Source: a delta proteobacterium MLS_D (GTDB lineage: Bacteria > Desulfobacterota > Syntrophia > Syntrophales > UBA2210). From it: a stretch of 64,000 nucleotides of DNA. Each line of letters starts with the position of its first letter. Within the stretch, counting starts at the first letter, position 1. Below are positions 4,723-56,128 of the stretch, piece after piece. The stretch is taken from positions 35,470 to 99,469 of the forward strand of contig LQBH01000057.1 in NCBI GenBank assembly GCA_002030015.1. The letters run 5' to 3'. A program made the translations under genes and the position numbers. A model generated the notes under the pieces. That model saw only the letters and a program-made list of their open reading frames with translations. It had not been told where the DNA came from and made no database searches.

Positions 4723-5316
4723 ATGGCGACATTGAAACACGCGACATGGACGCTCTGGCGGAACAACAGCGTAAACGGGGAGGAATCAAGGCTGCTGAGG
4801 CGAGTCGCCGATGATGTGCCCATTCCTCTCACGGACGAAGGGCGACGCGACGTGGAAACGTTGATTGACGCTTTTCTCGAAAGGAATGATGCGGCGGGAC
4901 TGGCGGCGCCGCAGATCGGTATGAGCAAGCGAATTGTTGTTTTTAAAACGAGGAACTTCGGAAGCGACGCCCCTCCGACGAGGGACGCCAATGATTACGA
5001 AGTGCTGATCAATCCCCGTATTACCCAATACCGTGGCGTCGAGGAGCAGCAGACCGAAGGATGTCTCTCTTGTCCCGAAATCAGTGCGGACGTTACCCGA
5101 TGGACCGAGGTAAAGGTGAAGGCCTTTGACCGAACGGGGCGCAAGATCAACCGACGTTACACGGGATTCCCGGCCCGCGTGGTCCAGCACGAACTGGATC
5201 ACCTCGAGGGTATACTGATCGTTGATCGGGCCGATACGCTTTATTTCCCCCGGGAGAAAAAACAATTTTTTGAAACAATGTTTCAAATCGGCAGGCGGCC
5301 GACGCCCACGCTGTAA
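4723..5316 (+). CDS. def: Peptide deformylase
   Basis: All three Def motifs are present: GLAAPQIG, EGCLSCP and QHELDHLEG. The ORF track opens at 4639. I prefer the ATG at 4723 (MATLKH...), but the start is uncertain. Confidence 0.85.
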   Translation: MATLKHATWTLWRNNSVNGEESRLLRRVADDVPIPLTDEGRRDVETLIDAFLERNDAAGLAAPQIGMSKRIVVFKTRNFGSDAPPTRDANDYEVLINPRITQYRGVEEQQTEGCLSCPEISADVTRWTEVKVKAFDRTGRKINRRYTGFPARVVQHELDHLEGILIVDRADTLYFPREKKQFFETMFQIGRRPTPTL

Positions 5317-5347
5317 CAACCACTCGAAAGTTCAGGCTGCAAATCAT

Positions 5348-20835: not shown

Positions 20836-22377
20836 TTACGATTCACCATCCCGCTCCGAAGGATGAAGCCGCGGCAGCAATCCCGGAATATCCCGGAAAA
20901 CCCGCTCGGCGGTTTCGCGTTCAATGTGATTGACCGGACGGGACAGCAATTCTTCCATCCGCTGCTGCGCCTTGAAAAATACCTCGTCCTCATTCCCTTC
21001 ATAGGGATAGGGAGACGACAGCAATCCTTTTCGAAGAACCCTGCGGACATATCGAATGAACAGCTTGTGTGGTGAAGCGAGTACTTCCCGAATCTGGCGG
21101 GCCATGGTTTCCAGTTCATCTCCGTCCAGCCGGGGTCCCTGAAAGAAATATTTAATCATACTGAAATGAGTGTCGTCGATGACCGCCTGGAGCGGCGAGA
21201 ATGCGGCGTTGCAGTCCAGAAGCCCGTAGGCGCAGTGCAGATACTGGGGACCGCTGAGGGTGACCAGTATGTTTGAAAACAGCCGTTCAACCGTGGACTG
21301 CTGCCCCGGAAATGCCGGGTCGCAGACGCCGGAGGTGGAGTAGTTGGGAATACCGTAGTAACGCGCCAGCTGTGTGCAGTCGATCGTGTACTGACTCGTC
21401 TCGACGGCGCCGTATGAATCGGCGAGATTGTCCATGCGGGTTCTCACGGGGACCGTGCCGTATAGGATGGGCGTCCCCGGATTGACCAGCTGTCCCAGAA
21501 CGATGCCGGCAAGCACTTCGGCGTTGATCTGGGCGATGATGCCCGCTTCGTGAATAGGCGCGGTGGTTCCGGCCTGCGGGGATGACGACACTGCCACGGG
21601 TATGCCCCGACGGCAGATGTCGATAAACGATCCCGTCGTCTCATCGACAAACTGGAGCGGACTTTTCACCAGGCAGGTGATGAATGACAGGATCGGATTT
21701 TCTTGCAGTTTCTCGTCGTCACCGGCGATGATCGAGGCCATGGCCAGCACGGTATCGAGTTGATCCGGTTTTGTAAGACCAACCATCACATGTTTTGTCG
21801 TATTATCGAGGCTGGCGTAGACCTTGTTGACATCCTTGATGTCTTCGGTGATGTCGGCGTCCTGAATATTGACGTTGCGGATGAACCCGTCCAGCGTTTC
21901 CAGGTGTTCCGAGAGACGGGCCGACAGACACAAGTCGGCCAGCATGCCTCTGCGCGGTTTGAATTCGGCGACCCTGATTTCCTTCACCGGATCGGACTTT
22001 TTCACGTAGATGGGAAATTCAGCGTCGACCCAGGTATTCGCCTCGGAACCGGTCACGAAATACACCCGCGGTTCCCTTCCGTCCATTACCAAGGCGTTTT
22101 CGGAGTTCCTGGCCCCGAGCGTAATAACGGCGGGAGCCGACTGCAGACCCCGCTCGACAACTCCCGGTGGAATTTTCACGGTCCGGTAAGGCGGGGGACC
22201 CTGCATGAGGACCGAAACGTCGGCGCCGGCTTCGGCGAAAATCGACGCCGCCTCGTCGTTATAACAGACAAGACCGGGGTCGCTCAGAATGGCCAGCGAC
22301 GCCCGGTGAATATCGTCGATCTGCTTCCGTGACAGACGTTCCAACGGCGCCGGTATCAGCAGTCCCTGTCGCGGCAT
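20836..22377 (-). CDS. MttB-superfamily methyltransferase, non-pyrrolysine type (paralog 1, 513 aa)
   Basis: The N-terminus (LSRKQIDDIHRASLAILSDPGL) and the RRGIPV and NPGTPILYG blocks are typical of the family. The ORF is uninterrupted with no in-frame TAG. A GGGAGG RBS is present. Confidence 0.85.
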   Translation of the reverse strand: MPRQGLLIPAPLERLSRKQIDDIHRASLAILSDPGLVCYNDEAASIFAEAGADVSVLMQGPPPYRTVKIPPGVVERGLQSAPAVITLGARNSENALVMDGREPRVYFVTGSEANTWVDAEFPIYVKKSDPVKEIRVAEFKPRRGMLADLCLSARLSEHLETLDGFIRNVNIQDADITEDIKDVNKVYASLDNTTKHVMVGLTKPDQLDTVLAMASIIAGDDEKLQENPILSFITCLVKSPLQFVDETTGSFIDICRRGIPVAVSSSPQAGTTAPIHEAGIIAQINAEVLAGIVLGQLVNPGTPILYGTVPVRTRMDNLADSYGAVETSQYTIDCTQLARYYGIPNYSTSGVCDPAFPGQQSTVERLFSNILVTLSGPQYLHCAYGLLDCNAAFSPLQAVIDDTHFSMIKYFFQGPRLDGDELETMARQIREVLASPHKLFIRYVRRVLRKGLLSSPYPYEGNEDEVFFKAQQRMEELLSRPVNHIERETAERVFRDIPGLLPRLHPSERDGES

Positions 22378-22405: not shown

Positions 22406-23203
22406 TTATTGCACCAGTTCTCCCCTGCGATAGGACCTGATGAAGCGTTTACAGCGACTATCCCGGCCGGTCAGGAGATCGGCCGTGGCGACAAGCGTCA
22501 TCAGCCGCTTGTCCAGGGGATTGAGAATCGCGGCGTCAAGTCCGGCCGCGGCAGCCATCAGCAGAAAAGCCCGGTTCACAATGCCCCGTGCCGGCAGCCC
22601 GTAAGAAATATTACTGAGTCCCATGACCGTTCCGGCCGCGGGATAACGCTTTTGCAGGGCCTCGATTGTTTTCAGAGTTACCCCCGCCTGGATCGAATCC
22701 ACCGAAACGGGCAGTACCAGGGGATCGAAGAATATCCGTTCTTCCGCTATGCCATGATCCGCGAGGGCCTTGACGATAACGTCCGCGGCCCGGACGCGCT
22801 CTTCAACCGTCCGCGGGATGCCGCCTTCGTCCATAACGAGAGCGATGACACAGGCGTCATTGCGGGCCGCGAGAGAACCCACCATCTTCAGTCGATCGGG
22901 TTCTGCGTTCACGGAATTTATCATCACTCTGTCGCCGCGGTACACTTCGAGCCCCGCCCGGAGCACTGACGGATCATCGCTGTCCAGGCACAGCGGTTTA
23001 TTCGTGGCCGACCGGACCACGTCCACGAGCCAGCGCATGGTGGCCGCGCCTTCTCCTCCTTCTCCCGCGTTGACGTCAATGTAATCCGCCCCGGCGGTGT
23101 CCTGTTTTCCGGCCAGGTCCGCAAGAAAAGACTCGTCCCTGCGGCCGATCGCGTCGCGGACCGAGGGGATGGAAGCATTGATTTTTTCACCGATTATGAT
23201 CAT
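22406..23203 (-). CDS. Methyltetrahydrofolate:corrinoid methyltransferase (pterin-binding, MtgA/AcsE-like)
   Basis: 265 aa beginning MIIIGEKINASIPSVRDAI, with ADYIDVNAG, INSVN and GLSNISYGLP blocks of the pterin-binding (DHPS-like) fold. A strong AAGGAG RBS is present. Confidence 0.8.
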   Translation of the reverse strand: MIIIGEKINASIPSVRDAIGRRDESFLADLAGKQDTAGADYIDVNAGEGGEGAATMRWLVDVVRSATNKPLCLDSDDPSVLRAGLEVYRGDRVMINSVNAEPDRLKMVGSLAARNDACVIALVMDEGGIPRTVEERVRAADVIVKALADHGIAEERIFFDPLVLPVSVDSIQAGVTLKTIEALQKRYPAAGTVMGLSNISYGLPARGIVNRAFLLMAAAAGLDAAILNPLDKRLMTLVATADLLTGRDSRCKRFIRSYRRGELVQ

Positions 23204-23221: not shown

Positions 23222-24667
23222 CTACAGTGATCTCAAGCCGGGAATTTCATCCATGATCCGACGCGCCGCAGCGTCGGGGATATACCGCTTCGGTTGTTCG
23301 GCCAGGAATGCCCTGACCGTGTCGGCCGCGCGTGCCCGTGCGTCCTTCGATCCTCGCTGTTCCCATTGTCTGCGATCATCCCGGTCGCTCAATCCGGGCA
23401 GAAACCGTTCATTGCGCATGAGCTTCCGTGTATGCGGCTGCGCCACGTAATGGCCGCCGGGACCGACATTTTTTATAATATCGAAGGCAAGTGACTCATC
23501 GTCCACTCGAATGCCCTCCACGGCACGCATGACCATGCCGATGATATCGTTATCGATGACGAGCTTTTCGTACGACGCGGTCAGGCAGAACTCGATGAAC
23601 CCCGCGGCGTCGTGAATGAAATTACCGCCCGCGAGAGCCACCATGACGGAACTCACCGCTGATTCATAGCCCGCTTGCGCGTCCGCGGTCTTAGCGTCGG
23701 TCATGCCCGCCGTGGCATAGTAGGGAAGCCGGTAGTGCTGGGCCATCTGTGCCGCCGCGGCATTGAGAAGTCCCATTTCAACGGCGCCCGAAAGATATTT
23801 CATGTCACGCAGGTCCGCGACCGACGCGACGCTGCCGTAGATCACGGGCGTTCCGGGATTCGCCAGCTGGGCAAGCATGACCCCGGCCAGGGTGTCGACG
23901 TTCTGTATGACAAGCGTTCCGGCCAGCGTTATCGGTGCCGTGGCTCCGCTGAGCGGCTCGGAGGGAACCACGACAGGAATGCCCCGCCGGGCGATCTCGA
24001 TGGTGAGACCCGAATAGTGCATGTCCAGTCTGAGGGGACTGACAACGCAGGCTACCATAGAAATGAAAGGCCTCTCCCGCAACGGTTCGGCGCCGCCGGC
24101 GACATGTTCGGCCATGCGGATCACCCGTTCCACGCCTTCAAACGTATACACTCCTCCCATGACATGTTTCCGGGTATACGTGAGGGCCGCGTAAAAACGA
24201 TTGGCGTCCACCTCCTCGGCGGCAAGATCGTTCGGGTACACGTTCAGCATGTAAAAATCGATGTGTTCCAGCCTGTCCACGAGCCGGGCCATAGACACCA
24301 CGTCTTCAAGGACGGACGGTCTCGGTCGGTCGGCTCCCGGCTCAAGCACGTTGAGCGCCGTACCTCCCGTACCCAGGTACACATTCCGCCCGCCGACGTG
24401 ACAATCGAGATCGCCGCTTTCATCCCTGCCGCAGAGACTGACGACGGACGGAGCGCCGCCGATGAGTCGTTCCGCCAGGGAGGCCGGTATTTTCAGAACA
24501 TGACCGTCGGCCGCCCGGGCACCGGCGTCGAGAAAGAGCCTCCTCGCCTCCGGAAGCCGAACCTCGATGCCCACTTCTTCAAAAACGCGGAGGGACGTTT
24601 CATGGATTCGCGACACGGCATCGTCAGACAGCGGTCTGTAGGACCCCCCTTCGCGTGTTTCCTTCAT
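23222..24667 (-). CDS. MttB-superfamily methyltransferase, non-pyrrolysine type (paralog 2, 481 aa)
   Basis: The LSDDAVSRIHETSLRVFEEVGI N-terminus and the RRGIPV and NPGTPVIYG blocks are present. The ORF is uninterrupted. Its ATG overlaps the metF stop (ATGA at 24664-24667). Confidence 0.85.
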   Translation of the reverse strand: MKETREGGSYRPLSDDAVSRIHETSLRVFEEVGIEVRLPEARRLFLDAGARAADGHVLKIPASLAERLIGGAPSVVSLCGRDESGDLDCHVGGRNVYLGTGGTALNVLEPGADRPRPSVLEDVVSMARLVDRLEHIDFYMLNVYPNDLAAEEVDANRFYAALTYTRKHVMGGVYTFEGVERVIRMAEHVAGGAEPLRERPFISMVACVVSPLRLDMHYSGLTIEIARRGIPVVVPSEPLSGATAPITLAGTLVIQNVDTLAGVMLAQLANPGTPVIYGSVASVADLRDMKYLSGAVEMGLLNAAAAQMAQHYRLPYYATAGMTDAKTADAQAGYESAVSSVMVALAGGNFIHDAAGFIEFCLTASYEKLVIDNDIIGMVMRAVEGIRVDDESLAFDIIKNVGPGGHYVAQPHTRKLMRNERFLPGLSDRDDRRQWEQRGSKDARARAADTVRAFLAEQPKRYIPDAAARRIMDEIPGLRSL

Positions 24668-25545
24668 ATGTTATTTCTCCCGGGCAGTGATATGCCGTTC
24701 AGAATTTCCTCCACGGGTCCGCTCCGGTTCATACTGTAGAAATGAAGTCCCGGGACACCGTGTTGCAAAAGGTCCTCGGTCTGCCGAACGGCATAGTCGA
24801 TACCCCGGCGTGCCACCTCGCCGTCGTCGTCCCGCACGGGATCTATCCGTTCACGCAGTTCCCGGGGCAGTGTCGCGCCGCAGAGAGATACGATTTTGCT
24901 TATCTGGCGATAGTTTATCACGGGGAAAATACCGGGAACGAGCGGCACGTTCACACCCGCCCTGTCAGCCGCGTCACGGAACCGGTAAAAATCCTCGTTG
25001 CGGTAAAACAGCTGTGTTATGACGAAATCGGAACCAGCGTCAATCTTGCGTTTCAGGTGATCGATATCCGCCTCAAAACTCTCAGCTTCCTGATGTCCCT
25101 CGGGATATCCCGCAACGCCCACGCAGAACCAGTTGTAGGAACGAATGAAATCAACCAGCTCACAGGCGTAGCCGAACCCGTCCTTCGGCCTGGTAAAGGA
25201 TGTTTCTCCCGCCGGCGGATCTCCCCGAAGCGCAAGGATGTTCTGCACGCCCTTGTCCCGTAATTCCCGAAGAATACCGTCTATCTGTTCTCTGTCAGCG
25301 CCCACGCAGGTCAAGTGAGCCAGCACCTCCACGGAAGCTTTTTCCTTGAGAAGCGAGGCTATCTCGACGGACATGTCACGCGTACCGCCCCCGGCGCCAT
25401 ACGTCACGGATATGAAGTGCGGATCGAGCTCCGCAAGGCGGTCTATCACGGGAACGAGACGGTCGATGGTACCGTCCCTGACGGGCGGAAAAACCTCAAA
25501 GGAAAGCACGCATGGGTCTGTTGCAAAGAAATCCCTAATTTTCAC
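24664..25545 (-). CDS. metF: 5,10-methylenetetrahydrofolate reductase
   Basis: MetF-like blocks include SFEVFPP, ISVTYGAGG and a C-terminal HFYSMN. I prefer the GTG at 25545 (VKIRDFF), preceded by AAAGGAGA. The maximal ORF to 25695 would overlap the upstream gene by 160 nt. Confidence 0.85.
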   Translation of the reverse strand: MKIRDFFATDPCVLSFEVFPPVRDGTIDRLVPVIDRLAELDPHFISVTYGAGGGTRDMSVEIASLLKEKASVEVLAHLTCVGADREQIDGILRELRDKGVQNILALRGDPPAGETSFTRPKDGFGYACELVDFIRSYNWFCVGVAGYPEGHQEAESFEADIDHLKRKIDAGSDFVITQLFYRNEDFYRFRDAADRAGVNVPLVPGIFPVINYRQISKIVSLCGATLPRELRERIDPVRDDDGEVARRGIDYAVRQTEDLLQHGVPGLHFYSMNRSGPVEEILNGISLPGRNNI

Positions 25546-26356
25546 GGCCCGTCGTCTCCTTTCCCCCGGTACGGCGACCAGGGCCGTTACCTCGGAAAAG
25601 GTAGGACGGGATCGAACGCCGTTCGGGACAATGTCGTCGGTCGCACCGGGTGCAGGGATTCTTGAGGACGTGACGGGTCCTCCGGCTTCCGTCAAGAATG
25701 CCGAATATACCTGAAATGGATTTCCGCGGTCTCATAAGCAGTGACGGGCTCAGGGACACGCCGATACGCTTCGTGTCAACCAGTGAAAAGAGTTTCCTTT
25801 GTTCCGCCAGCGACCAGTCGCAGTAACCGGGACTGAAACGCATGGTTACTCCTCTGCCCTTCCTGCCGAAGCGTTCCGCCATTTCCCGGTGAAAGGCGGT
25901 AACCACCGCCTCGATCGCCAGTGAACCGACACGATCAAGCAGGTACACGCCGGACAGGCGCTGCTCCGATGTCAATCGCTCGATTTCACAGTCAAGCACA
26001 GGACCGATGGTGGCGACAAAACAAACGGCCTGCGGGCAATCTTCAAGCACCCAGGCCAGTTTACTGCTGGTCAAACTTACGCCGTTTTCAAGTCTCACCG
26101 TCGCACCATCGTCGCCTTCCACTGATCTGATGGTAAAACTGAGACGAGGATGAATCAGTTCATTGAACGGGTGGTCTCCCGCGTCAGCGCCCTCCCGCAG
26201 AATGCGCTGCAGGCGTCGACCGTGTCTTCCGCCGACGAGACGGGACCACTCACGCCGTTCACCGTCGTCAAGATCATCAAACGAATCAACGATGTTTTCG
26301 AAAGAAAACAGCTGCTCCATAACCATCACGCGTAACAGGGGGAATAAAGGTTTCAC
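25535..26356 (-). CDS. MetH activation (AdoMet-binding reactivation) domain-like protein
   Basis: The blocks RFSPGYCDWSLAEQRKLFSLVD and LMRPRKSISGIFGI resemble the methionine synthase C-terminal activation domain. The C-terminus has a CxxCxxxxC motif. The start is uncertain: GTG at 26356, or ATG at 26326 or 26320. Confidence 0.65.
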   Translation of the reverse strand: MKPLFPLLRVMVMEQLFSFENIVDSFDDLDDGERREWSRLVGGRHGRRLQRILREGADAGDHPFNELIHPRLSFTIRSVEGDDGATVRLENGVSLTSSKLAWVLEDCPQAVCFVATIGPVLDCEIERLTSEQRLSGVYLLDRVGSLAIEAVVTAFHREMAERFGRKGRGVTMRFSPGYCDWSLAEQRKLFSLVDTKRIGVSLSPSLLMRPRKSISGIFGILDGSRRTRHVLKNPCTRCDRRHCPERRSIPSYLFRGNGPGRRTGGKETTGREN

Positions 26357-39602: not shown

Positions 39603-40319
39603 ATGACTCGAAAGTCCACCGGACATACACTCGATGAAACGCAGGAATCGTGGGAAATGCTGTTCCGGCGAGCCGCCACGGATCTCGGCCTGTCTCCGAC
39701 GGAGCGCCAGGTGCGACGGTTTGCGCTCTACCGCGATGAACTTATCACCTGGAACGCGAAGATGTCGCTCCTCTCGTTGAAAACGCCGCTGGACCTGCCG
39801 GTGAAACACTTCGCCGACGCCCTCACGGTCCTCCCGATCGTGACCGGCGGCCCGGCCCGGCTTCTCGACGCGGGAACGGGCGCCGGATTTCCGGGCATAC
39901 CTCTCGCCATCATGCACGAATCTCTGGAGGTTACCCTCGTTGAATCATCGCGAAAAAAAGCTTCCTTTCTCAAACAGGCCACGCGGCTCCTTGAGCTCGA
40001 AAAGGCGTCGGTGATTCACGACAGGATCGAAGAGATGATGAACGAAGCATCACAACGGGCGAGTTATGACTTCGTCGTGTCCAGGGCCGCCTTCACGACA
40101 GAGCAACTTGTCGGCATTGCCGGTTATTTCCTGAAACCGGGCGGTATGCTTATAGCAATGAAGGGTACGCCACCGGACCGCGAAATTGAGGACGCACTTG
40201 CCGCGGCCGCCCGGTTCGACATGGAGGACGCGGGACGCCGCATCCTGGAACTTCCCTTCGGAACGGGCGCGCGATGTCTTGTTCTTTTTCGAAAAAATAT
40301 CAGGCATCGCCGGCTTTAA
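39603..40319 (+). CDS. rsmG: 16S rRNA (guanine527-N7)-methyltransferase
   Basis: 238 aa with the SAM motif LDAGTGAGFPGIPLAI and the classical position upstream of parAB. Confidence 0.85.
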   Translation: MTRKSTGHTLDETQESWEMLFRRAATDLGLSPTERQVRRFALYRDELITWNAKMSLLSLKTPLDLPVKHFADALTVLPIVTGGPARLLDAGTGAGFPGIPLAIMHESLEVTLVESSRKKASFLKQATRLLELEKASVIHDRIEEMMNEASQRASYDFVVSRAAFTTEQLVGIAGYFLKPGGMLIAMKGTPPDREIEDALAAAARFDMEDAGRRILELPFGTGARCLVLFRKNIRHRRL

Positions 40320-40426
40320 CGCGCCATGCCCGGCAACCAAAATTGACCTTCTCTTCGAAATGCTTTTGTGATAGCATCGCTCACTTATCCCGTGAAATCA
40401 CGTTATGAAAGAATTTTTTCTCGGCC

Positions 40427-41197
40427 GTGCGAAACATACTATCAATTGCAAATCAAAAGGGCGGCGTCGGTAAAACAACGACCGCGATCAGCATTGCGGC
40501 GGCGCTTGCCGCCTCGAACAAGAAAATACTGCTGGTCGACGCGGATCCCCAGGCAAACGCAACGACCGGGCTGGGCATCGCCAAAAACGACGTTGCAACC
40601 GGCAATCTTTATCACGTCCTGATCGGCAGAGCCGTCGCGGACGATGTGATCATCGGTACGTCGGTTCCCATGCTCGACGTTATGCCCTCGAACCAGGACC
40701 TGGTCGGCGTTGAAGTTGAATTCGTCACCATGCCGAAACGGGAGGAACGGCTGAAAAATGCCGTGAGAAACATTGACAGAGGCTATGATTATATTATAAT
40801 CGATTGTCCTCCATCCCTGGGGTTTTTGACGGTGAACGCACTGGTAGCGTCCGACGCCCTGATCATTCCTCTTCAGTGTGAATATTTTGCGCTGGAGGGA
40901 CTGGGACAGCTCCTGAACACGGTCAAACTCATTCAGGCCCGGCTGAATCCGCAGTTATCGCTTGCCGGTATCCTGTTGACCATGTTTGATGTACGGAACG
41001 GCATTTCACACCGGGTTGCCGAAGAAGTCAGAAAATATTTTGGTTCGCGAGTGTTTGCCACGGTTATTCCACGAAACGTAAGACTTTCGGAATGTCCGAG
41101 TTACGGCATGCCGATATTTCAGTATGATGGCGCATCCCGGGGAGCCCTGTCCTACATGGAGCTCGCAAAAGAAATCCTCAACGACGGGAGACTGTAA
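40427..41197 (+). CDS. parA: Chromosome partitioning ATPase ParA/Soj
   Basis: 256 aa with the deviant Walker A NQKGGVGKTTT and a DCPPSL block. The start is GTG. Confidence 0.9.
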   Translation: MRNILSIANQKGGVGKTTTAISIAAALAASNKKILLVDADPQANATTGLGIAKNDVATGNLYHVLIGRAVADDVIIGTSVPMLDVMPSNQDLVGVEVEFVTMPKREERLKNAVRNIDRGYDYIIIDCPPSLGFLTVNALVASDALIIPLQCEYFALEGLGQLLNTVKLIQARLNPQLSLAGILLTMFDVRNGISHRVAEEVRKYFGSRVFATVIPRNVRLSECPSYGMPIFQYDGASRGALSYMELAKEILNDGRL

Positions 41198-42054
41198 TGG
41201 CCAAGAGAAACGCCCTGGGAAAAGGACTGGGGGCAATTTTTACCGACCTGGTCGACGACGGATCGCCGAAACCGCGTTACGTCGTCTGCGGCGTTGAGGA
41301 ACTGCGACCAAACTCATTCCAGCCCCGGCGATCGTTTGACGGCGATGAAATCAAGAACCTTGCTGATTCCATCAGGACAAACGGTATCATTCAACCGATC
41401 ATCGTCAGGAAAATCGATTCCGGTTACGAAATCATCGCCGGTGAGCGGCGATGGAGAGCCGCCCAGGCAGCGGGACTTCGGGAAGTACCTGTCGTCGTCA
41501 GGGAAGCGACGGACCGTGATCTCGCCGAATGGTCGCTTATAGAAAACATTCAGCGGGAGGAACTGAACCCGATCGAAGAAGCGGACGCCTACAACCGTCT
41601 GCTTTCGAACTTTCATCTTTCACAGGAAGAAATAGCCCTCCGGGTCGGCAAGGACCGCTCAACCATAGCAAATTCCCTGAGACTGCTGAAACTTCCCTCG
41701 AAAATACGGGAAGCGCTGGTTGCAGAAAAAATAACCGCCGGGCATGCCCGGGCCTTGCTGTCCCTGCAGTCCGCTGCAAAGCAGATGAGCCTGTTTCATA
41801 ACATTAACTCAAAAAAGCTTTCGGTCAGGGAAGCGGAGCGGCTCGCAAAAGAAGCCGGCAAAAAAACAGCAGCCCCGAAAAAGGAATCGCATCGTCCCGG
41901 GTTCCGGGAACTGGAAACGACGCTGTCACGATCACTGATGGCCAAAGTCGTCGTGAAACCGAAAAAACGGGGTGGAGTGCTTGAAATACGATATAGGTCG
42001 GACGACGAATTGAACAGGGTCGTAGAACGGATCCTGTCATCAGAGATCGGGTAA
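41197..42054 (+). CDS. parB: Chromosome partitioning protein ParB/Spo0J
   Basis: 285 aa with the ParB box GERRWRAA and an HTH region (SQEEIALRVGKDRSTIANSLRLL). Its ATG overlaps the parA stop (TAATG). Confidence 0.9.
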   Translation: MAKRNALGKGLGAIFTDLVDDGSPKPRYVVCGVEELRPNSFQPRRSFDGDEIKNLADSIRTNGIIQPIIVRKIDSGYEIIAGERRWRAAQAAGLREVPVVVREATDRDLAEWSLIENIQREELNPIEEADAYNRLLSNFHLSQEEIALRVGKDRSTIANSLRLLKLPSKIREALVAEKITAGHARALLSLQSAAKQMSLFHNINSKKLSVREAERLAKEAGKKTAAPKKESHRPGFRELETTLSRSLMAKVVVKPKKRGGVLEIRYRSDDELNRVVERILSSEIG

Positions 42055-42080
42055 CGACAGGAAACGTGGCAACACTCCCT

Positions 42081-42100
42081 GTATCAACAGCTGTTGATAA
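42081..42100. other. Inverted pair of DnaA-box-like 9-mers (GTATCAACA / TTATCAACA) forming an 18-bp palindrome upstream of dnaA
   Basis: TATCAACAGCTGTTGATA lies at 42082-42099. The minus-strand box TTATCAACA matches the consensus TTATCCACA at 8/9 positions. The site lies 19 nt before the dnaA ATG. Confidence 0.45.
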
Positions 42101-42118
42101 CCCTGTGTATAGGAAAGT

Positions 42119-43480
42119 ATGAATTTGGAAACTATTTGGTCCGAAAGCACTAAAATAATTAAAGACAACATCACCAAACAGAACTTCGAAACCTGGATTA
42201 AACCGATAAAAATTCAGTCCATCGAAGACAACACGGTGACGTTATCGGTGCCGAACAAGTTCTTCAGGGACTGGATTGTCGATAACTACTATTCACTGAT
42301 CTGTGACGCCGTGTCGAGTGTCGCTTCGACACACGTTTCAGTATCATTTTCTATACAGAAATCAAATAGTTCGATTCTTTCGACGGCCGAGCGGACAGCC
42401 GAAGCAGATGAAACAACCAAAGTCGAGCAGGCGACCCTTCCTCAACGACCGCTGTCGTCACTCAATCCCCACTACAGTTTCGAGCGGTTCATCGTCGGCT
42501 CGTCAAACCAGTTTGCTCACGCGGCGGCACGTTCCGTGGCGGAACAACCGGCCCATAATTACAATCCCCTGTTCATTTACGGCGGTGTCGGACTTGGCAA
42601 GACGCACCTGATCAACGCAGTCGGTCTTCTTACAACCTCACTCTATCCGAAAAAAAACGTCCTCTATGTTTCAGCCGAGGAATTCATGAATGAATTGATC
42701 AATTCGATCCGCTACGACAAAATGCCCGAATTCAGAGAAAAATACAGGAAGATCGATTGTCTCCTCATCGACGACATTCAGTTCATCGCCGGCAAGGAAC
42801 GAACCCAGGAAGAATTTTTTCACACGTTCAACACGCTTCATGATTCAGGAAAACAGATCGTCGTTACCAGTGATAAATTTCCCAAGGAAATCCAGAATCT
42901 CGAAGCACGCCTGCGTTCGCGGTTTGAATGGGGTCTCATCGCCGATATTCAGCCGCCCGAGATGGAAACACGGGTCGCAATCATTCGCAAAAAAGCGGCC
43001 GAGAACAATATGAACATTCCCGACGACGTCGTACAGTACATTGCCTCGGCGGCCGATTCCAATATTCGGGAACTTGAGGGTATACTGACGAGAATAGCGG
43101 CATACGCATCCCTCACCGGCAGTGAAATTACCGTCGACACTATCAGGGAAATCATGAAAAAACTCATGAAGCAGGTCAAAAAACAAGACATCACCGTCGA
43201 TGATATCGTCAAGGTGGTTGCCTCTCAGTTCAACATCAAGATCGCCGATCTTAAATCACAGAAAAAGAACAAGGATATCGTGCTCTCTCGACAGGTAGCC
43301 ATGTATCTGGCGCGGAAGCTCACGGAATTATCATTCCCGGACATCGGTTCGAAAATCGGCAATCGCGACCATTCGACCGTTATCTACGCCAACAATAAAA
43401 TCAGGTCCCGAATAGGCAAAGATGGAACACTGAGAAGCCTCGTGGAAGAAATCGAGGAAACCCTGCAGCGAAAAGGTTAA
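42119..43480 (+). CDS. dnaA: Chromosomal replication initiator protein DnaA
   Basis: 453 aa with Walker A GGVGLGKTHL, sensor blocks and a C-terminal DNA-binding domain (DHSTVIYA). Confidence 0.95.
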   Translation: MNLETIWSESTKIIKDNITKQNFETWIKPIKIQSIEDNTVTLSVPNKFFRDWIVDNYYSLICDAVSSVASTHVSVSFSIQKSNSSILSTAERTAEADETTKVEQATLPQRPLSSLNPHYSFERFIVGSSNQFAHAAARSVAEQPAHNYNPLFIYGGVGLGKTHLINAVGLLTTSLYPKKNVLYVSAEEFMNELINSIRYDKMPEFREKYRKIDCLLIDDIQFIAGKERTQEEFFHTFNTLHDSGKQIVVTSDKFPKEIQNLEARLRSRFEWGLIADIQPPEMETRVAIIRKKAAENNMNIPDDVVQYIASAADSNIRELEGILTRIAAYASLTGSEITVDTIREIMKKLMKQVKKQDITVDDIVKVVASQFNIKIADLKSQKKNKDIVLSRQVAMYLARKLTELSFPDIGSKIGNRDHSTVIYANNKIRSRIGKDGTLRSLVEEIEETLQRKG

Positions 43481-43559
43481 CTACCCTCCACTGTCGGGTC
43501 AACAGGAAAGCAACAGGTTCCATCAGTATAAGGAACGGTAACACAAGGCGAAATAATGA

Positions 43560-43620
43560 TTATCCACATATCAACAACCACTATTGTTACTACTATTTTT
43601 TTTATTTTTACTTGAAAGAA
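43560..43620. other. oriC candidate: perfect DnaA box TTATCCACA + adjacent TATCAACA + 40-nt AT-rich stretch
   Basis: TTATCCACA lies at 43560-43568 and TATCAACA at 43569-43576. An AT-rich run (ctattgttactactattttttttatttttacttgaaagaa) follows at 43581-43620, in the dnaA-dnaN spacer. Confidence 0.45.
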
Positions 43621-43631
43621 TAGGTGACACG

Positions 43632-47178
<3,547 letters not shown>

Positions 47179-47282
47179 TCGCCTGACGGGGGTTACGCAC
47201 CGCGCCGCGGGAATGTTCTTTCCGTGGAAGAGTTCCGTTGCACGGTGCGCCACCCCTTCGTTATAGGGAGGAAAGAAACAGA

Positions 47283-49811
47283 ATGGATCAGTTGAAGCAG
47301 CGGAATATGCCCGTCAACATAGAAGACGAAATGAAAAGTTCCTACGTGGACTACGCCATGAGCGTCATTATCGGCCGGGCCATACCCGACGTGCGCGACG
47401 GCATGAAACCGGTTCATCGACGCGCCCTGTTCGCGATGGCCGATCTGGGAAACCGCTGGAACAAACCCTATAAGAAATCCGCCCGCATCGTGGGCGATAT
47501 CATCGGCAAGTATCATCCTCACGGCGATTCGGCTGCCTATGACACAATCGTCCGAATGGCCCAGGATTTCTCGATGCGTTACCCGCTGGTGGACGGCCAG
47601 GGAAACTTTGGTTCCATCGACGGCGATCCGCCGGCCGCCATGCGGTACACGGAAAGCAGGATGGCCCGTATCGCCGACGAGATGCTCGCCGATATCGACA
47701 AGAACACGGTCGATTTCATTCCCAACTACGACGAGACTCTCGAGGAACCGGTCGTGCTGCCCGCGAGAATACCCGAGCTGCTCCTGAACGGTTCTTCGGG
47801 CATCGCCGTCGGTGTCACCACGAACATACCGCCTCACAACCTCACGGAAGTCTGCGATGCGGCCGTCGCGCTCATCAACAATCCCGAACTGACCGTGGAC
47901 GACTTGATGCGGTATATCCAGGGGCCCGATTTTCCCACGGCGGGATTCATCAACGGACGCGAGGGTATACTGTCAGCCTACAGAACAGGCCGGGGAATAA
48001 TCCGCATACGCGCCCGGGCCCTGGTTGAACGAAATGCGCGGAACGACAGGGAAAGTATCGTTATCACAGAACTGCCGTACCAAGTGAACAAAGCTTCCCT
48101 GATCGAAAAAATTTCAGATCTGGTCAAGGAAAAAAAGATAAACGGCATCGCCGACCTGCGGGACGAATCGGACCGGGACGGCCTTCGGATCGCCATCGAC
48201 CTGAAGCGCGACGAAAACGCCTCCGTCATTCTGAACCAGCTGTATAAACAGACGCCCATGGAATCAACCTTCGGCATCATCATGCTGGCCATCGACCAGG
48301 GACGGCCGAAGTTGTTGAATCTCAAGGAAATCCTTCAAAAATTTATTATATTCCGGCAGGAAGTCGTGATACGAAGGACACGCTTCGACCTTGCCCGCGC
48401 TCGGGCGAGACTGCACATTCTTGAGGGACTGATTATCGCCCTCGACAATATAGACGACGTGGTCGCGGCCATTCGTGCGTCCTCGAATCCACGGGAAGCA
48501 TCGAGCCGGCTGGTGGACGATTTCGGTCTGTCAGAGGATCAGGCGAAGGCGATTCTCGAAATGCGGCTGCAAAGGCTCACGGGCCTGGAGCGCGACAAGA
48601 TCAGGGCGGAACACCGGGAGGTGTCCGAGCTGGTTCTCGAGCTCGAAGGCATTCTCGCCGACATCCGTAAAGTGATGAACATAATCAAGGAAGAACTCGA
48701 AGACATCAAAAAGCGATTCGGTGACGAGCGACGGACGGAAATCGTACGGGACAGCGAGGAGATCGATGTCGAGGACATGATCGTTGAAGAAGACATGGTG
48801 GTTACCATATCCCACCAGGGATACATCAAGCGCAATCCCGTCAGCCTCTATACGAGTCAGCGGCGGGGCGGCCGGGGCAAGATGGGTATGGGAACCAAGG
48901 AAGACGATTTCGTCGAGAAGATCTTCATAGCTTCCAGCCACAGTCATATCCTCTTTTTCACAAACAGGGGGCGGGTCTACTGGCTGAAAGTCTATCAGAT
49001 CCCGCAGGCCGGCCGGGCGGCCAGGGGGAAGGCCGTCGTCAATCTCATTGAAATAGGCGACGACGAACACATTACGGCGTTTTTGCCCGTCAGGGAATTC
49101 GAGGCGGGGAAATATGTTTTCATGGCGACCCGGAACGGCATCGTGAAAAAAACGGAACTGCTTGCCTACTCCAATCCCCGGTCGGGCGGCATTATCGCGC
49201 TGACGCTCGACGAAGGCGATGAACTGATCGGCGTTCACCTGACCGACGGGGAACGGAACATTTTTCTGGGCACAAACCGGGGACATTCCATCAGGTTCAA
49301 GGAAACGGACGTTCGCCCCATGGGCCGCACCGCCCGGGGCGTCACCGGCATCAGAATGGAGCCGGGCGACCGGGTCGTGGGCGTGGAGATTCTTTCAGGT
49401 GGAAACTCGATCCTGACCGTGTCGGAAAAAGGTTTCGGCAAGCGGACCGACGTGGCGGAATACCGTCTCCAGACTCGAGGCGGCAAGGGCATCATCAATC
49501 TCAAAACAACGCCGCGGGTCGGTTTCGTAACCGTCGTGTTGCAGGTTTGCAATAACGAAGACGTTATGCTGATCAGTAATACCGGCAACATCATTCGACT
49601 GAACGTGGAAGATATCTCGCTGCTTCACCGGAGCACCCAGGGAGTCAAGCTGATCAACCTCGAATCCGAAGAGCGTCTCGTCGGACTCGCCCGGGCCGAG
49701 CGGGGCGAGGAACCGAGCGGCGAAGAAAACGATGTCGCCCTCGACGAAGCCGAACAGGTCGATGAAAACAACGACGCCGAAACAACGGAGGACGGTGACG
49801 ACGGCAATTAA
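47283..49811 (+). CDS. gyrA: DNA gyrase subunit A
   Basis: The blocks [28 protein letters not shown] and the active-site region AAMRYTE are present, with beta-pinwheel repeats and an acidic tail. The ATG at 47283 is preceded by GGGAGG. The track ORF opens at 47238. Confidence 0.95.
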
Positions 49812-51730: not shown

Positions 51731-52696
51731 ATGAGTGACGTAAAAATACCGGAAGATGTATGTGATTGCCTGATAGCAGGCGGCGGACCGGCCGGATTGA
51801 CGGCGGCTCTGTACGCGTCCCGGTCGGGCATGAAGACTCTGATACTTGAAGGGTCGACAACCGTGAGCCAGATCACCATCACCGACCTGGTTGAGAACTA
51901 TCCCGGCGTTCCCGATGTGGGCGGATTCGAACTGCACAGCCGTCTGAGGACCCAGGCGCTCGCCTTCGGCGCCGAGGCCAGGGCGGAAGAAATCCAGTCG
52001 GTTAAGAAGACCCGCCTGGGAGCCGTTGACGGCTGGACCGTCAGCACGGGCGATGGATCCTATCGCGCTCTGTCGGTCATCATTGCCACGGGAGCGCGGT
52101 GGCGCGCGCTCGACGTCCCCGGGGAGCAGGATTTCATCGGGAAAGGTATTTCCTATTGCGCCACCTGCGACGGTCCGTTCTACCGGAACAGTGCGGTGGC
52201 CGTGGTCGGGGGCGGTGACACGGCCGTCCAGGAAGCCCTCTTTCTGACGAAGTTCGCCGAAAAAGTGACGATCATTCACCGCCGCGATCGGCTGCGTGCG
52301 GCGGCGATTCTTCAGGAGCGTGCTTTTGCGAACGAAAAAATAGATTTCTGCTGGAACGCCGTGGTCGACAAAATCGAGGGAGAAGACGTCGTCACCGGCA
52401 TCAGGGTGAGAAAGCTGCACGGCGGCGATGAATACGTTACCCTCCCCGTGGACGGCGTCTTTGTCTTTATTGGTCTTGATCCCCTGACGGACAGTGTCCG
52501 TGGGGTTGTCAAGCTCGACGAGGGTGGCTATATTGTTACCGACGGATCTATGAGAACGTCCGAGCGGGGTCTGTTCGCCGCCGGCGACTGTATAGCCAAA
52601 CCGCTGCGCCAGATCGTGACGGCCTGCGGTGACGGCGCTACGGCGGCTCACGAGGCTTCGCTGCACGTGGATGAGCTGAAGGGCCGGCCCTACTGA
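51731..52696 (+). CDS. trxB: Thioredoxin-disulfide reductase
   Basis: 321 aa with FAD motif GGGPAGLTAALY, redox centre CATCDG and NADPH motif GGGDTAVQEA. Confidence 0.9.
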   Translation: MSDVKIPEDVCDCLIAGGGPAGLTAALYASRSGMKTLILEGSTTVSQITITDLVENYPGVPDVGGFELHSRLRTQALAFGAEARAEEIQSVKKTRLGAVDGWTVSTGDGSYRALSVIIATGARWRALDVPGEQDFIGKGISYCATCDGPFYRNSAVAVVGGGDTAVQEALFLTKFAEKVTIIHRRDRLRAAAILQERAFANEKIDFCWNAVVDKIEGEDVVTGIRVRKLHGGDEYVTLPVDGVFVFIGLDPLTDSVRGVVKLDEGGYIVTDGSMRTSERGLFAAGDCIAKPLRQIVTACGDGATAAHEASLHVDELKGRPY

Positions 52697-52742: not shown

Positions 52743-52988
52743 ATGCCAATCTACGAATACCGCTGCAACCGGTGCCGGGGCGAGTTTGAGCATCTGGGAT
52801 CGATGAACGACCGCGACAGTGAGGTTGAATGTCCGCTGTGCGGGGGCAGGGGCGCGGAAAAACTGATGTCCCGGTGCCAAACAAAAGTCGAGATGTCTCT
52901 TTCGGATTTCAAGGCGCTGAGCGGCGCCGCGGCCGGCGGAGGGTGCGCCGGTTGTACATCCGGATCATGCAGCACCTGCGACAAATGA
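52743..52988 (+). CDS. FmdB-family zinc-ribbon protein
   Basis: 81 aa beginning MPIYEYRCNRCRGEFE, with a second CxxC (CPLCGG) and a Cys-rich tail. The RBS is AAAGGAGAAGG. Confidence 0.7.
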   Translation: MPIYEYRCNRCRGEFEHLGSMNDRDSEVECPLCGGRGAEKLMSRCQTKVEMSLSDFKALSGAAAGGGCAGCTSGSCSTCDK

Positions 52989-53085: not shown

Positions 53086-53931
53086 GTGATGGATGAAATC
53101 ATACAGATCTGGCAGCACATCCCGGCATCGCTTGACCCGGTTCTGGCACGTATCGGATCGTTCCAGATTCGGTATTACAGCCTCATGTACCTGGCGGCGT
53201 TCTTCTGCACGTACCTGATCGTCGTCCGCAGAATCAGAACAGAGAACTATGAATTTTCCACGGCCGTGATCCAGGATGTGTTTGTCTGGGGGATCGTTGG
53301 ATTACTGGTGGGAGCGCGGTTGGGCTATGTGCTGTTCTACGACATGTCCCACTTTATCGAGCACCCCCTCGAGATATTTCTTCCCGTCCAGTGGTCCGGC
53401 GACGGCGTTCTTGTTACCGGCATCAGGGGCCTGTCGTATCATGGAGGCCTGCTGGGCATTATCGCCGCAGTGGTTATTTTCTGCCGCCGCCGGGGAATCC
53501 GCGTTCTGCGGCTGGCGGATCTTTTCGCCGCCGCCGCGCCCCTCGGATACACCTTCGGACGGCTCGGCAACTTCATAAATGGTGAACTCTATGGAAAAGT
53601 CACGTCGGTTCCCTGGGGCATGTATTTTCCCCTCGATCCGACGGGACGGCTGCGGCATCCTTCGCAGCTTTACGAAGCGTTGTTCGAGGGGCTCGTGCTT
53701 TTCGCTCTGCTCTGGCCGCTGCGGCAGAAATTCCGGACCGAGGGGACCCTGTTCGGTCTGTACATCGCCGGGTACGGTATCATCCGGTTTGTTATCGAGT
53801 TTTTTCGTGAACCGGACCTGCACCTGGGGTATGTGCTGGGACCGTTCTCCGCGGGCCAGTTGTTATGCCTTGCCATGATCATAACCGGCATCGTGATGAT
53901 CTTCGTGCTGCAGAAGCGGGCAAAACGGTAA
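53086..53931 (+). CDS. lgt: Prolipoprotein diacylglyceryl transferase
   Basis: 281 aa and polytopic, with Lgt blocks YHGGLLG, GRLGNFINGELYG and HPSQLYE. Confidence 0.9.
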   Translation: MMDEIIQIWQHIPASLDPVLARIGSFQIRYYSLMYLAAFFCTYLIVVRRIRTENYEFSTAVIQDVFVWGIVGLLVGARLGYVLFYDMSHFIEHPLEIFLPVQWSGDGVLVTGIRGLSYHGGLLGIIAAVVIFCRRRGIRVLRLADLFAAAAPLGYTFGRLGNFINGELYGKVTSVPWGMYFPLDPTGRLRHPSQLYEALFEGLVLFALLWPLRQKFRTEGTLFGLYIAGYGIIRFVIEFFREPDLHLGYVLGPFSAGQLLCLAMIITGIVMIFVLQKRAKR

Positions 53932-53968
53932 TATTTGTAATACATAATAAACCAGGAGGAACGACAGA

Positions 53969-55300
53969 ATGGGAAAGCGTCTCATTATTATCGGCGGCGG
54001 CGCCGCCGGGCCATCGGTGGCGGCCGAGGCCCGTCGCCGGGATCCGTCACTGGACATCAACGTGCTTGAAGCCGGGGAGTTCGTATCCTACATATCTTGA
54101 CTGATGCCCTATTACATCGGTGATGTAATACGGCAATCGGAAGAACTCGTTGCACGGACACCGGAAAAATTCGGCGAGTCCGGCATAACAATTTCCCTGA
54201 ACACCACCGTGGAATCGGTCGATTACGACAAGGGGCTGCTGAAAACCGCCGCCGGAGAAACCATCGGATATGATCATCTCGTAATCGCCACGGGGACGAA
54301 CGCCATTCGCCCCGACATTCCCGGAATAGACCGGGACGGCGTGTTCGTGCTGAAAAATCTCACCGACGGTATCGCCGTCAAAAAGTGGGTCGAGGATAAC
54401 CACTGCCGCCGGGCCGTTGTCGTGGGGGCGGGGTTCGTCGCCATGGAACTCGCCGAGGCTTTTCGAACCCGCGACATGGATACGACGGTCGTGTACCGGG
54501 GCACACGTCCCATCAAGCGGTGGGACAAGGCCCTGACGGATATCGTCACGGAAGAACTGGAGAAAAACGGGGTCATCTTTGTTACCGGAACATCGCCGCG
54601 GGCCGTCGAGGAAAGCGGGGACGGGCTGCGCCTGGTGACGGATAACGGCGACTTCGACGCCGATGTTATCGTGTTCGGACTGGGTGTTAAACCGGAAACA
54701 TCGATAGCCCGCGATATAGGTCTGGAGATGGGAACATCGGGCGCCATCAAGGTTAATTTCTCCCAGAGGACGAGCCGTGAAGAGATATTCGCCGTGGGCG
54801 ACTGCGCCGAGGCATTCCATCGTATCCGCCGCGAATGGGTCCACATTCCGCTGGGCGATACCGCCAACAAGCAGGGCCGAATAGTCGGTTGTATCATCGG
54901 TGGCGCGCCACGCGTTTTTCAGGGCGTGGTGGGCGCCCAGAGTTTCAAGTTCTTCGGGCTGGAAATTGCGGCTACGGGTATCGACGAAGCGGAAGCCGTC
55001 GCATGCGGCTATCATCCTGAAAGTCATGTTACGAAGGGAACATTCAGGACGCCGTCAATGCAGGGCCGCGCGAGAATGAGCATCAAGCTCACCGCGGACA
55101 GGGCGACCGGGCGCTTACTCGGCGCCCAGGCGGTTTCGAATATCGGCGCCGTTGGTCGCATCAATATTCTGTCGGCCTGCCTGTGGTCGGAGATGACTCT
55201 CGACCAGATCGGGTACCTGGATTTCGCCTATTCACCTCCCTTCGGCGGGGCCTGGGATATCGTTCACCGCGCCGCCCAGGGGCTGCAGAGGAAATTGTAA
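53969..55300 (+). CDS. CoA-disulfide reductase / NADH oxidase family flavoprotein with in-frame UGA (probable selenocysteine) at the catalytic Cys position
   Basis: The ATG at 53969 follows AGGAGG and opens 43 codons with a GxGxxG fold (IIGGGAAGPS). TGA at 54098-54100 sits in the context FVSYIS-U-LMPYYIG, which matches the family motif SFANC(G/A)LPY.IG. The rest equals track ORF 54104-55300, giving 443 aa in total. A hairpin follows at 54106-54134, and selA is in the window. Confidence 0.8.
54106..54134 (+). promoter_or_regulatory. Candidate bacterial SECIS hairpin
   Basis: The structure is GCC-C-TATTACATC [GGT] GATGTAATA-C-GGC. It has a 9-bp perfect stem, plus 3 further bp beyond a C:C mismatch. 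It starts 5 nt after the TGA, and the G-rich apical loop lies about 19-21 nt 3' of the TGA. Confidence 0.65.
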
Positions 55301-55312
55301 GGAGGCTGGGCC

Positions 55313-55633
55313 GTGACTGTACGCTGTCACTACTGCGGCGGACCCGTCGGCGAGGATGTCACAATCGGTTTTCGGGATACCTGCGGCAGGTGCGGGCGTG
55401 ATCTGCACGTATGCAGGAACTGCCGGTTTTACGATCCCGGCGCCTACAACGCATGTCGGGAACCCCAGGCTGAACGGATACTCGACAAGGAGCGCGCCAA
55501 TTTCTGCGAGTATTTCGTTCCGGCGTCGGATCCGACGCCGGGAGCTCGCGGGAGTTCCTCCGGCACGGAAGACGCCGCCCGGAAACGCCTTGAAGACCTG
55601 TTCGCGGGTGGCACCGATTCTTCGAAACGGTGA
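55313..55633 (+). CDS. Cys-rich zinc-ribbon-like hypothetical protein
   Basis: 106 aa with a GTG start and AGGAGG 7 nt upstream. The Cys motifs are CHYCGG, CGRCG and CRNCRFY, plus two further Cys. It starts 12 nt after the Nox/Cdr-like gene. I do not recognise a family. Confidence 0.55.
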   Translation: MTVRCHYCGGPVGEDVTIGFRDTCGRCGRDLHVCRNCRFYDPGAYNACREPQAERILDKERANFCEYFVPASDPTPGARGSSSGTEDAARKRLEDLFAGGTDSSKR

Positions 55634-55660
55634 TGGAAAAACATGGAAAGGAGGGAGCAC

Positions 55661-56128
55661 ATGGCAGACATGAAACTGGACGACGTGATCGACAGGGCCG
55701 TGAAGCGCGAAGAGGAATCTTTCGCCTTTTACCGGGATCTCAGCGACCGTGTGGAAGATCCAGCGGTACGGGACACGCTGGAATTTCTCGCCGGTGAAGA
55801 GCGGAAACACCGGGACTTTCTGATCGCTTACCGCGAGGGACGGGTCGGCGCCGGCGGCCTGCGAATGGCTGAAGCCGTCGATTACAAGATTGCCGAGCAT
55901 CTGGAAGCGCCCGATCCCGAAAAGGATATGGAAAGCAAGGACGTCTACCTGGTGGCGGCCCACCGGGAGCTCAATTCATACCTTTTTTACAAGGAGCTTG
56001 CCGATGTCCATCCAGAGGGAGAAGTAAAAGACGTGCTTCTTCGCATCGCCTCCGAGGAAATGAAGCACAAGGAAAAGGTGGAATATCTCTATGCCAACAC
56101 GGCGTTTCCCCAGACGGCGGGAGGCTGA
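55661..56128 (+). CDS. Ferritin-like / rubrerythrin-family diiron four-helix-bundle protein
   Basis: There are two E...ExxH half-sites (EESFAFY..GEERKH and ELNSYLFY..SEEMKH). I prefer the ATG at 55661, preceded by AAGGAGGGAG. The track ORF opens at 55643. Confidence 0.7.
   Translation: MADMKLDDVIDRAVKREEESFAFYRDLSDRVEDPAVRDTLEFLAGEERKHRDFLIAYREGRVGAGGLRMAEAVDYKIAEHLEAPDPEKDMESKDVYLVAAHRELNSYLFYKELADVHPEGEVKDVLLRIASEEMKHKEKVEYLYANTAFPQTAGG

Follow-up and report, generated by a model that had tools for sequence, protein, structure and literature searches.

A probable selenoprotein gene of the NADH oxidase/CoA-disulfide reductase group, miscalled as a truncated open reading frame, and its relatives in Syntrophales

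Results and Discussion

The gene described here occupies positions 53969-55300 (plus strand) of a 64,000-nucleotide stretch of the delta proteobacterium MLS_D genome (contig LQBH01000057.1), which is referred to below as the window. It is very probably a genuine selenoprotein gene encoding an FAD-dependent and NAD(P)H-dependent oxidoreductase of the NADH oxidase (Nox), NADH peroxidase (Npx) and CoA-disulfide reductase (CoADR) group, miscalled as a truncated open reading frame (ORF). Comparative sequence analysis places an in-frame UGA at the position of the catalytic cysteine of these enzymes and a hairpin of the bacterial selenocysteine insertion sequence (SECIS) type immediately downstream of it, so that selenocysteine (Sec, U) is predicted at residue 44. 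The parts of the gene are as follows.

53954-53959 (+), Shine-Dalgarno sequence AGGAGG, read from the sequence
53969-54097 (+), true start and N-terminal segment of 43 codons, containing the GxGxxG motif of the FAD-binding fold (IIIGGGAAG) and, running up to the active site, the VSYIS strand, from the translation; aligns with residues 1-43 of structure 6ruz
54098-54100 (+), UGA, predicted Sec (U44), in the column of the one redox-active Cys that the Nox/Npx/CoADR group has, from alignments with structures and homologues
54101-54140 (+), predicted SECIS hairpin inside the coding sequence, from folding, conservation and co-occurrence in metagenomes
54101-55300 (+), the 399 remaining codons and TAA, encoding the rest of the FAD domain, an NAD(P)H-binding Rossmann domain and a dimerisation domain, from Pfam and the ORF list

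Gene structure

The Shine-Dalgarno sequence lies 9 nt 5′ of the ATG at 53969-53971, which opens 43 sense codons (translated as MGKRLIIIGGGAAGPSVAAEARRRDPSLDINVLEAGEFVSYIS); beyond the in-frame TGA, LMPYYIGDVI and the remainder of the protein continue in an unbroken frame to the TAA at 55298-55300. Read through, the gene yields a product of 43 + 1 + 399 = 443 amino acids (aa). An earlier note made from the sequence alone had proposed this ribosome-binding site, start, UGA and 443-aa product, and its coordinates are exact to the base. The mechanical ORF list splits the gene into 53969-54100 (43 aa) and 54104-55300 (398 aa), and gene callers place the start at the ATG at 54104, as seen both in that list and in truncated database entries of 398-400 aa. 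The same note had predicted that standard callers would report a truncated enzyme, and a protein search indeed returned two length classes of homologues, one of ~399 aa (90% of the query) and one of ~443 aa (100% of the query), several of the ~399-aa entries being NCBI or JGI annotations under the name "FAD-dependent oxidoreductase".

The read-through product has the complete domain architecture of the group: Pfam finds Pyr_redox_2 (1e-58, residues 4-297), Pyr_redox (3e-21) and Pyr_redox_dim (5e-10), and the FAD-binding start of Pyr_redox_2 is present only when the upstream 43 codons are included. Among the relatives described below, third codon positions upstream of the TGA vary more than first and second positions, as in coding sequence.

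The UGA codon and the catalytic cysteine

When the protein was aligned to solved structures with Cys substituted at residue 44, residues 1-437 matched the NADH oxidase of Thermus thermophilus (6ruz, E=4.9e-88) and residues 1-432 the CoA-disulfide reductase of Pyrococcus horikoshii (5l1n, 4fx9 and 3kd9, E ~1e-74), with further matches to the NADH peroxidase of Enterococcus faecalis (E ~1e-60) and the CoADR of Staphylococcus aureus (E ~1e-46). For the Thermus and Pyrococcus enzymes the alignment puts the TGA column on the catalytic Cys (VSYGAC/GLPY and VSHAPC/GIPY, the slash following the Cys). In an alignment of homologues, the same column holds Cys in every full-length sequence (11 in number), and the truncated ones all begin at MPYYIGD. 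The proposal that the TGA aligns with the catalytic residue is thus borne out by structures and homologues alike. The more specific equation with Cys42 of Npx and Cys43 of the S. aureus enzyme follows from the alignment offsets (query residue 4 pairs with residue 2 of 1joa for Npx and with residue 3 of 1yqz for S. aureus CoADR), provided that the alignment is ungapped between those residues and residue 44. With its end-to-end alignment to solved structures, the read-through frame is far beyond what chance would give.

A probable SECIS hairpin within the coding sequence

The nucleotides that follow the UGA can be folded into a hairpin with a lower stem (54101-54108 with 54132-54140), a 9-bp upper stem (54110-54118 with 54122-54130, UAUUACAUC with GAUGUAAUA) and an apical GGU loop (54119-54121) at a spacing of 18 nt from the UGA. 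The minimum free energy (MFE) is -18.9 to -19.6 kcal/mol; at -19.6, the z-score is -2.8 and 2 of 200 shuffled sequences fold as well. In the bacterial SECIS (bSECIS) model as summarized in the legend of Fig. 2 of PMC13188914, the loop has 3-9 nt with G at its first two positions, the upper stem 4-16 bp, the spacing is 16-37 nt and the MFE at most -7.5 kcal/mol. The hairpin agrees with every item of this model, having a loop of 3 nt that begins with GG besides the stem length, spacing and MFE given above.

The core of the hairpin was defined as ATTACATC-GGN-GATGTAAT, positions 14-32 counted from the T of TGA, with 8 base pairs, and was compared between relatives that have TGA at the aligned codon (Sec forms) and relatives that have TGT or TGC (Cys forms). 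All 8 pairs are formed in 62 of 62 distinct Sec forms versus one of 16 Cys forms, and paired cells make up 100% of the core in the former and 78% in the latter. At the third codon positions 15, 18, 21, 27 and 30, the entropy is 0, 0.12, 0, 0 and 0 bits in Sec forms, against 0.90, 0.95, 0.34, 0.99 and 1.65 bits in Cys forms; within the Sec forms themselves, the third position in the loop is free (1.39 bits) and third positions beside the stem have 1-1.9 bits. Folded over 48 nt beginning with the UGA/UGY codon, Sec forms have a mean MFE of -10.5 kcal/mol and Cys forms one of -6.8 kcal/mol (Mann-Whitney p=1e-4), and RNAalifold independently predicted the same helix. A check for a bSECIS had been proposed in the earlier note, and its outcome is a hairpin that fits the published model and is kept only where the codon is TGA. 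Two Sec forms depart from the common stem, one (L062) by a compensatory change of C-G to U-A and the other (L074) by a wobble of U-A to U-G. The weight of the hairpin argument is in the frozen synonymous sites and in the contrast between Sec and Cys forms.

The predicted SECIS is built from codons of the conserved peptide Y-Y-I-G-D-V-I, so that the amino acids are constrained together with the RNA: 61 of 62 distinct Sec forms keep D-V-I, and the Cys forms have D-[VMLI]-I.

The association between hairpin and UGA was also found in the opposite direction. A metagenome collection was searched with the hairpin core alone, the TGA being left unspecified, and 119 matches could be evaluated. Of these, 111 are in the same gene family, and in all 111 a TGA stands exactly 13 nt upstream, with no case of TGT or TGC; the other eight are unrelated chance matches. 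Ten of the metagenome members (L084, L098, L112, L113, L122, L132, L138, L151, L154 and L164) are divergent, with N-termini such as IIGGSAAGPTAASSARR and with U-E-L-P, U-E-T-P, U-D-L-P or U-S-E-P as the motif at the active site, and have an identical SECIS core, which extends the conservation of the hairpin far past the Syntrophales subclade characterized by U-P-x-P.

Relatives with predicted selenocysteine and with cysteine

A scan of species-representative genomes yielded 80 loci, all in Syntrophales, Smithellaceae, Syntrophaceae or unclassified "Deltaproteobacteria" metagenome-assembled genomes (MAGs), and the aligned codon could be scored in 78 of them. It is TGA in 62, TGT in 12 and TGC in four; the closest relatives of the window gene, which are nearly identical to it (L001 at 97% and L002 at 93% identity; assemblies JAGYOR01 and DSBH01), both have TGA. 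The upstream GxGxxG peptide is conserved in 78 of 78. The loci are positional orthologues: of the 80, tblastn finds trxB upstream in 61 loci and lgt in 69, with their order kept. The Sec/Cys orthologue pairs that the earlier note had suggested looking for accordingly exist, as 62 TGA against 16 TGY at an identical codon of syntenic loci. Termination at the TGA in close orthologues would have spoken against a selenoprotein; they do not simply stop there, because all of the orthologues retain the 43-codon GxGxxG segment at the protein level. The upstream neighbours in the window are the following.

51731-52696 (+), trxB, thioredoxin reductase (NCBIfam TIGR01292)
52743-52988 (+), small ORF with a CxxC zinc ribbon, a conserved upstream neighbour
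53086-53931 (+), lgt (NCBIfam TIGR00544)

In a rough neighbour-joining tree of 79 proteins, rooted at the midpoint and lacking support values, Cys forms branch off from among the Sec forms in five or more separate places. This pattern suggests that Sec is the prevailing and perhaps the ancestral state in the clade of the window gene, with repeated replacement by Cys. Stated more fully, Sec may have been ancestral and dominant (~80% of species-level genomes) around Syntrophales and Smithellaceae, with several independent replacements of Sec by Cys, each followed by decay of the SECIS; we regard this history as tentative, its chances being a little short of even. If it is true, the family would be a far larger and systematically misannotated group of selenoproteins compared with the single Geobacter example of the literature, and it would offer a natural system in which to study Sec/Cys exchange and a flavin-coupled selenenic acid or selenenyl-sulfide centre.

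The Sec form with the compensatory stem change, L062:3130-3177 (PHBJ01000005.1, Deltaproteobacteria bacterium HGW-Deltaproteobacteria-13), is the only one nested among Cys forms in the tree. Its stem reads AUUAUAUC-GGU-GAUAUAAU, the only compensatory change among Sec forms, and replaces Val by Ile. L062 could represent either a lineage that retained Sec or a re-acquisition.

Genetic code and selenocysteine machinery

The 26 confidently annotated genes of the window end in TGA (10), TAA (10) or TAG (6), and among them only the gene at 53969-55300 has an internal stop. An alternative genetic code in which UGA specifies Trp or Gly was rejected on the grounds that 10 of the 26 genes end in TGA; since TGA is an ordinary stop codon there, the UGA at 54098 would be a site-specific recoding event. 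A scan of the whole window for in-frame TGA or TAG codons with long open flanks returned mostly GC-rich shadow ORFs and ordinary adjacent genes, and gave no second selenoprotein candidate. One gene of the Sec machinery is located in the window, as had been noted earlier, and was confirmed on the minus strand; its presence indicates that the organism makes Sec-tRNA.

1874-3292 (-), selA, L-seryl-tRNA(Sec) selenium transferase (TIGR00474 equivalog, 580 bits versus a cut-off of 267.9)

Alternative explanations

A single base change turns TGT or TGC into TGA, and the source of the window is apparently uncultured, with MAGs as its nearest relatives; the TGA might on these grounds be a sequencing or assembly error, or else a recent inactivating mutation that has left a pseudogene of an ordinary Cys enzyme. 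This explanation has next to no probability, given that the same TGA is found in 62 independent species-representative genomes, including the close relatives L001 and L002, and in 111 metagenome contigs, always with the hairpin and with intact and conserved coding sequence on both sides. Scarcely more credible is real termination, in which a 43-aa peptide and a separate 398-aa protein starting at ATG 54104 would be produced. An ATG does occur 3 nt past the TGA, and public databases contain many entries of 398-400 aa, but the 398-aa product would be devoid of both the GxGxxG FAD-binding fold and the catalytic residue, and there is no Shine-Dalgarno sequence before 54104, whereas AGGAGG precedes 53969. 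Moreover, some Sec-form relatives have T, I, L or V at the second position after U (as in U-P-T-P-Y-Y) and hence no ATG from which to start, and the peptide encoded by the 43 upstream codons is conserved throughout the relatives.

Decoding of the UGA as something other than Sec, or not as Sec only, is improbable, yet it deserves more consideration than the preceding explanations. In some selenoproteins, Cys is known to be inserted in place of Sec at UGA when selenium is limiting. Either the Sec machinery might insert Cys in this way, or the hairpin might promote read-through by a near-cognate tRNA for Trp or Cys; the 16 Cys orthologues at the same codon are at least consistent with an enzyme that can work with Cys. 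However, the hairpin has the bSECIS features that serve SelB binding (G-G in a small apical loop, and the spacing), selA is present, TGA ends other genes of the window in the normal way, and the lineages that have fixed Cys change the codon and lose the hairpin.

Several observations also weigh against the assignment of 53969-55300 as a selenoprotein gene of this group. ARAGORN found no tRNA of any kind, and hence no tRNA-Sec, in the 64-kb window, and an NCBIfam scan of the 39 other ORFs of the window did not find selB or selD; it is from selA alone that we infer a complete Sec machinery in the organism. A literature search found no experimental demonstration of Sec, by 75Se or mass spectrometry, in this gene or in any member of the family. 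Covariation in the hairpin is thin, with one compensatory pair, because six of the eight core pairs never vary. When 53800-54400 was scanned against Rfam with E<=10, two meaningless weak matches and no SECIS family came out, a result that is uninformative. The published motif of the family is UGxP, whereas the window gene has U-L-M-P and most of its relatives U-P-[MT]-P, so that Sec and the Pro at +3 match but the Gly at +1 does not. Finally, the product does not reach the equivalog cut-offs for CoADR (377.6 versus 458 for NF007123, 358 versus 578.8 for TIGR03385, and 215.7 versus 394 for NF010037) and is far under that of the H2O-forming NADH oxidase (NF046103, 228.5 versus 600).

Relation to catalogued selenoproteins

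The family to which the gene is assigned has already been catalogued as a selenoprotein family (PMC9312934, PMC13188914, PMC1794560), and its discovery is credited by both reviews to Kryukov and Gladyshev 2004; the earlier note's statement that Sec-containing proteins resembling NADH oxidase had been proposed in surveys was correct, the family having been catalogued since that year. One instance of the "NADH oxidase" selenoprotein family, from Geobacter metallireducens, was reported by Zhang et al. 2006 (PMC1794560), and "NADH oxidase" also appears as a bacterial selenoprotein family in a study of Olavius symbionts (PMC1976440) and in the GOS study (PMC2398784). A 2026 review lists the family as "TIGR03385, UGxP" (PMC13188914).

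The window gene shares the superfamily of these CoADR/NADH oxidase selenoproteins (COG0446/TIGR03385), its best NCBIfam models being the CoADR equivalogs NF007123 (E=7e-113) and TIGR03385 (E=7e-107). It also has in common with them a single Sec in an N-terminal active-site motif with Pro at +3, frequent Cys homologues, occurrence in anaerobic 'Deltaproteobacteria' and routine misannotation by gene callers. The founding member, WP_011365774.1 of G. metallireducens, was compared by its published description. The residue that follows Sec, L in the window gene and P in most relatives instead of G, points to a distinct Syntrophales subclade. The window gene is thus a new member of an already catalogued selenoprotein family and possibly belongs to a distinct, large Syntrophales subclade of it. 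Earlier surveys recorded one such selenoprotein, that of G. metallireducens, in the set of sequenced bacteria that they covered, whereas here Sec is the majority state across ~80 species-level genomes, which suggests that the Sec form is the norm and not the exception in the clade of the window gene.

In principle nothing here is new, since earlier publications already describe the family, how its UGA is recoded and where its Sec lies. The practical consequence is that the 398-400-aa "FAD-dependent oxidoreductase" of NCBI and JGI annotations, which lacks an FAD-binding fold and an active site in many MAGs, would really be a 443-aa selenoenzyme. The misannotation affects metabolic reconstructions and estimates of selenium requirement for syntrophic bacteria of methanogenic communities. 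Among the relatives, moreover, Sec and Cys orthologues can be paired cleanly, and the SECIS is gained or lost in step with the codon.

Predicted function

Among characterized enzymes, T. thermophilus NADH oxidase 6ruz and P. horikoshii CoADR (443 and 453 aa) have the same length class, domain order and catalytic column as the window protein; they use Cys where the window protein is predicted to use Sec, and the curated CoADR and NADH oxidase cut-offs are not reached by the latter. More distant members of the same group of flavoproteins with a single redox Cys (E=1e-60 to 1e-46) are E. faecalis Npx (1joa/1npx), S. aureus CoADR (1yqz) and the NADH oxidases of streptococci and lactobacilli. The Npx/CoADR group supplies the mechanistic template, in which a Cys-SOH or Cys-S-S-CoA is reduced by FADH2. 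At the position of what we take to be His10 of Npx and Nox, the window protein has Ala.

A second comparison is with mammalian thioredoxin reductase, an FAD/NAD(P)H oxidoreductase of the same superfamily in which Sec takes part in catalysis, as proposed for the window protein. The arrangement is different: the mammalian enzyme carries Sec in a C-terminal GCUG extension that acts together with an N-terminal CxxxxC disulfide, whereas in the window protein Sec would itself be the flavin-proximal centre and has no partner Cys. The mammalian SECIS is located in the 3′-UTR, while that of the window gene is of the bacterial in-frame type.

The scores below the equivalog cut-offs mean that the substrate is not fixed by the family models. 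The protein, at only 443 aa, has no C-terminal rhodanese domain. Candidate substrates are CoA disulfide or CoA persulfide, polysulfide, H2O2 and O2, among which the sequence does not decide. The trxB gene in the conserved neighbourhood is compatible with a role in thiol redox chemistry or in defence against oxidants, but lgt sits between trxB and the selenoprotein gene, making this weak evidence.

The data directly support a translation start at ATG 53969 and a hairpin of bSECIS form that the ribosome meets on reaching UGA 54098; by analogy with established bacterial Sec insertion, SelB with Sec-tRNA(Sec) would bind the hairpin and deliver Sec, allowing translation to go on. If the protein works as its Cys counterparts do, NAD(P)H would reduce FAD and the reduced FAD would in turn reduce an oxidised selenium centre. 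The form of that centre would depend on the substrate: O2 or H2O2 would give a selenenic acid, and a CoA disulfide or persulfide would give a selenenyl-sulfide formed with CoA or a persulfide. The regenerated selenolate would then attack the next substrate molecule. The higher nucleophilicity of Sec and its resistance to irreversible over-oxidation might be useful to strict anaerobes such as syntrophs that briefly meet oxidants.

Two ORFs follow the gene on the plus strand. The first (55313-55633, 106 aa) starts 13 nt past the stop codon of the selenoprotein gene and encodes four Cys pairs with CxxC or CxxxC spacing (VRCHYCGG...CGRCGR...CRNCRF...); it matches no NCBIfam family and is downstream of the gene in only seven of 80 related loci. 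The second (55643-56128, 161 aa) has a weak ferritin-like match to the N-terminal part of MbfA. Their products could be redox partners of the selenoenzyme or may be unrelated to it.

Other features of the window

The only match in the window at the Rfam gathering level is PYLIS_3, the pyrrolysine insertion sequence of mttB, at 23605-23704 on the minus strand (47.9 bits, gathering cut-off 38). It falls inside an ORF (23222-24667, minus strand) that encodes an uninterrupted MttB-family protein of 481 aa with no in-frame TAG (TIGR02369, 438 bits versus a cut-off of 525). Use of pyrrolysine by the organism is consequently not supported, and the match is read as homology of coding sequence. Beside this ORF, also on the minus strand, are a second MttB-family gene, a methyltetrahydrofolate:corrinoid methyltransferase gene and metF (20836-22377, 22406-23203 and 24664-25695), which suggests a cluster for the demethylation of quaternary amines. 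For a 444-aa ORF that begins with TTG (5222-6556, plus strand), NCBIfam gives no match at E<=1e-5.

From 39603 to 49811 on the plus strand, rsmG, parA, parB, dnaA, dnaN, gyrB and gyrA are found in a row. Around 40-44 kb the GC skew turns from negative to positive and the GC content falls to 0.50, and the window probably spans the chromosomal replication origin.

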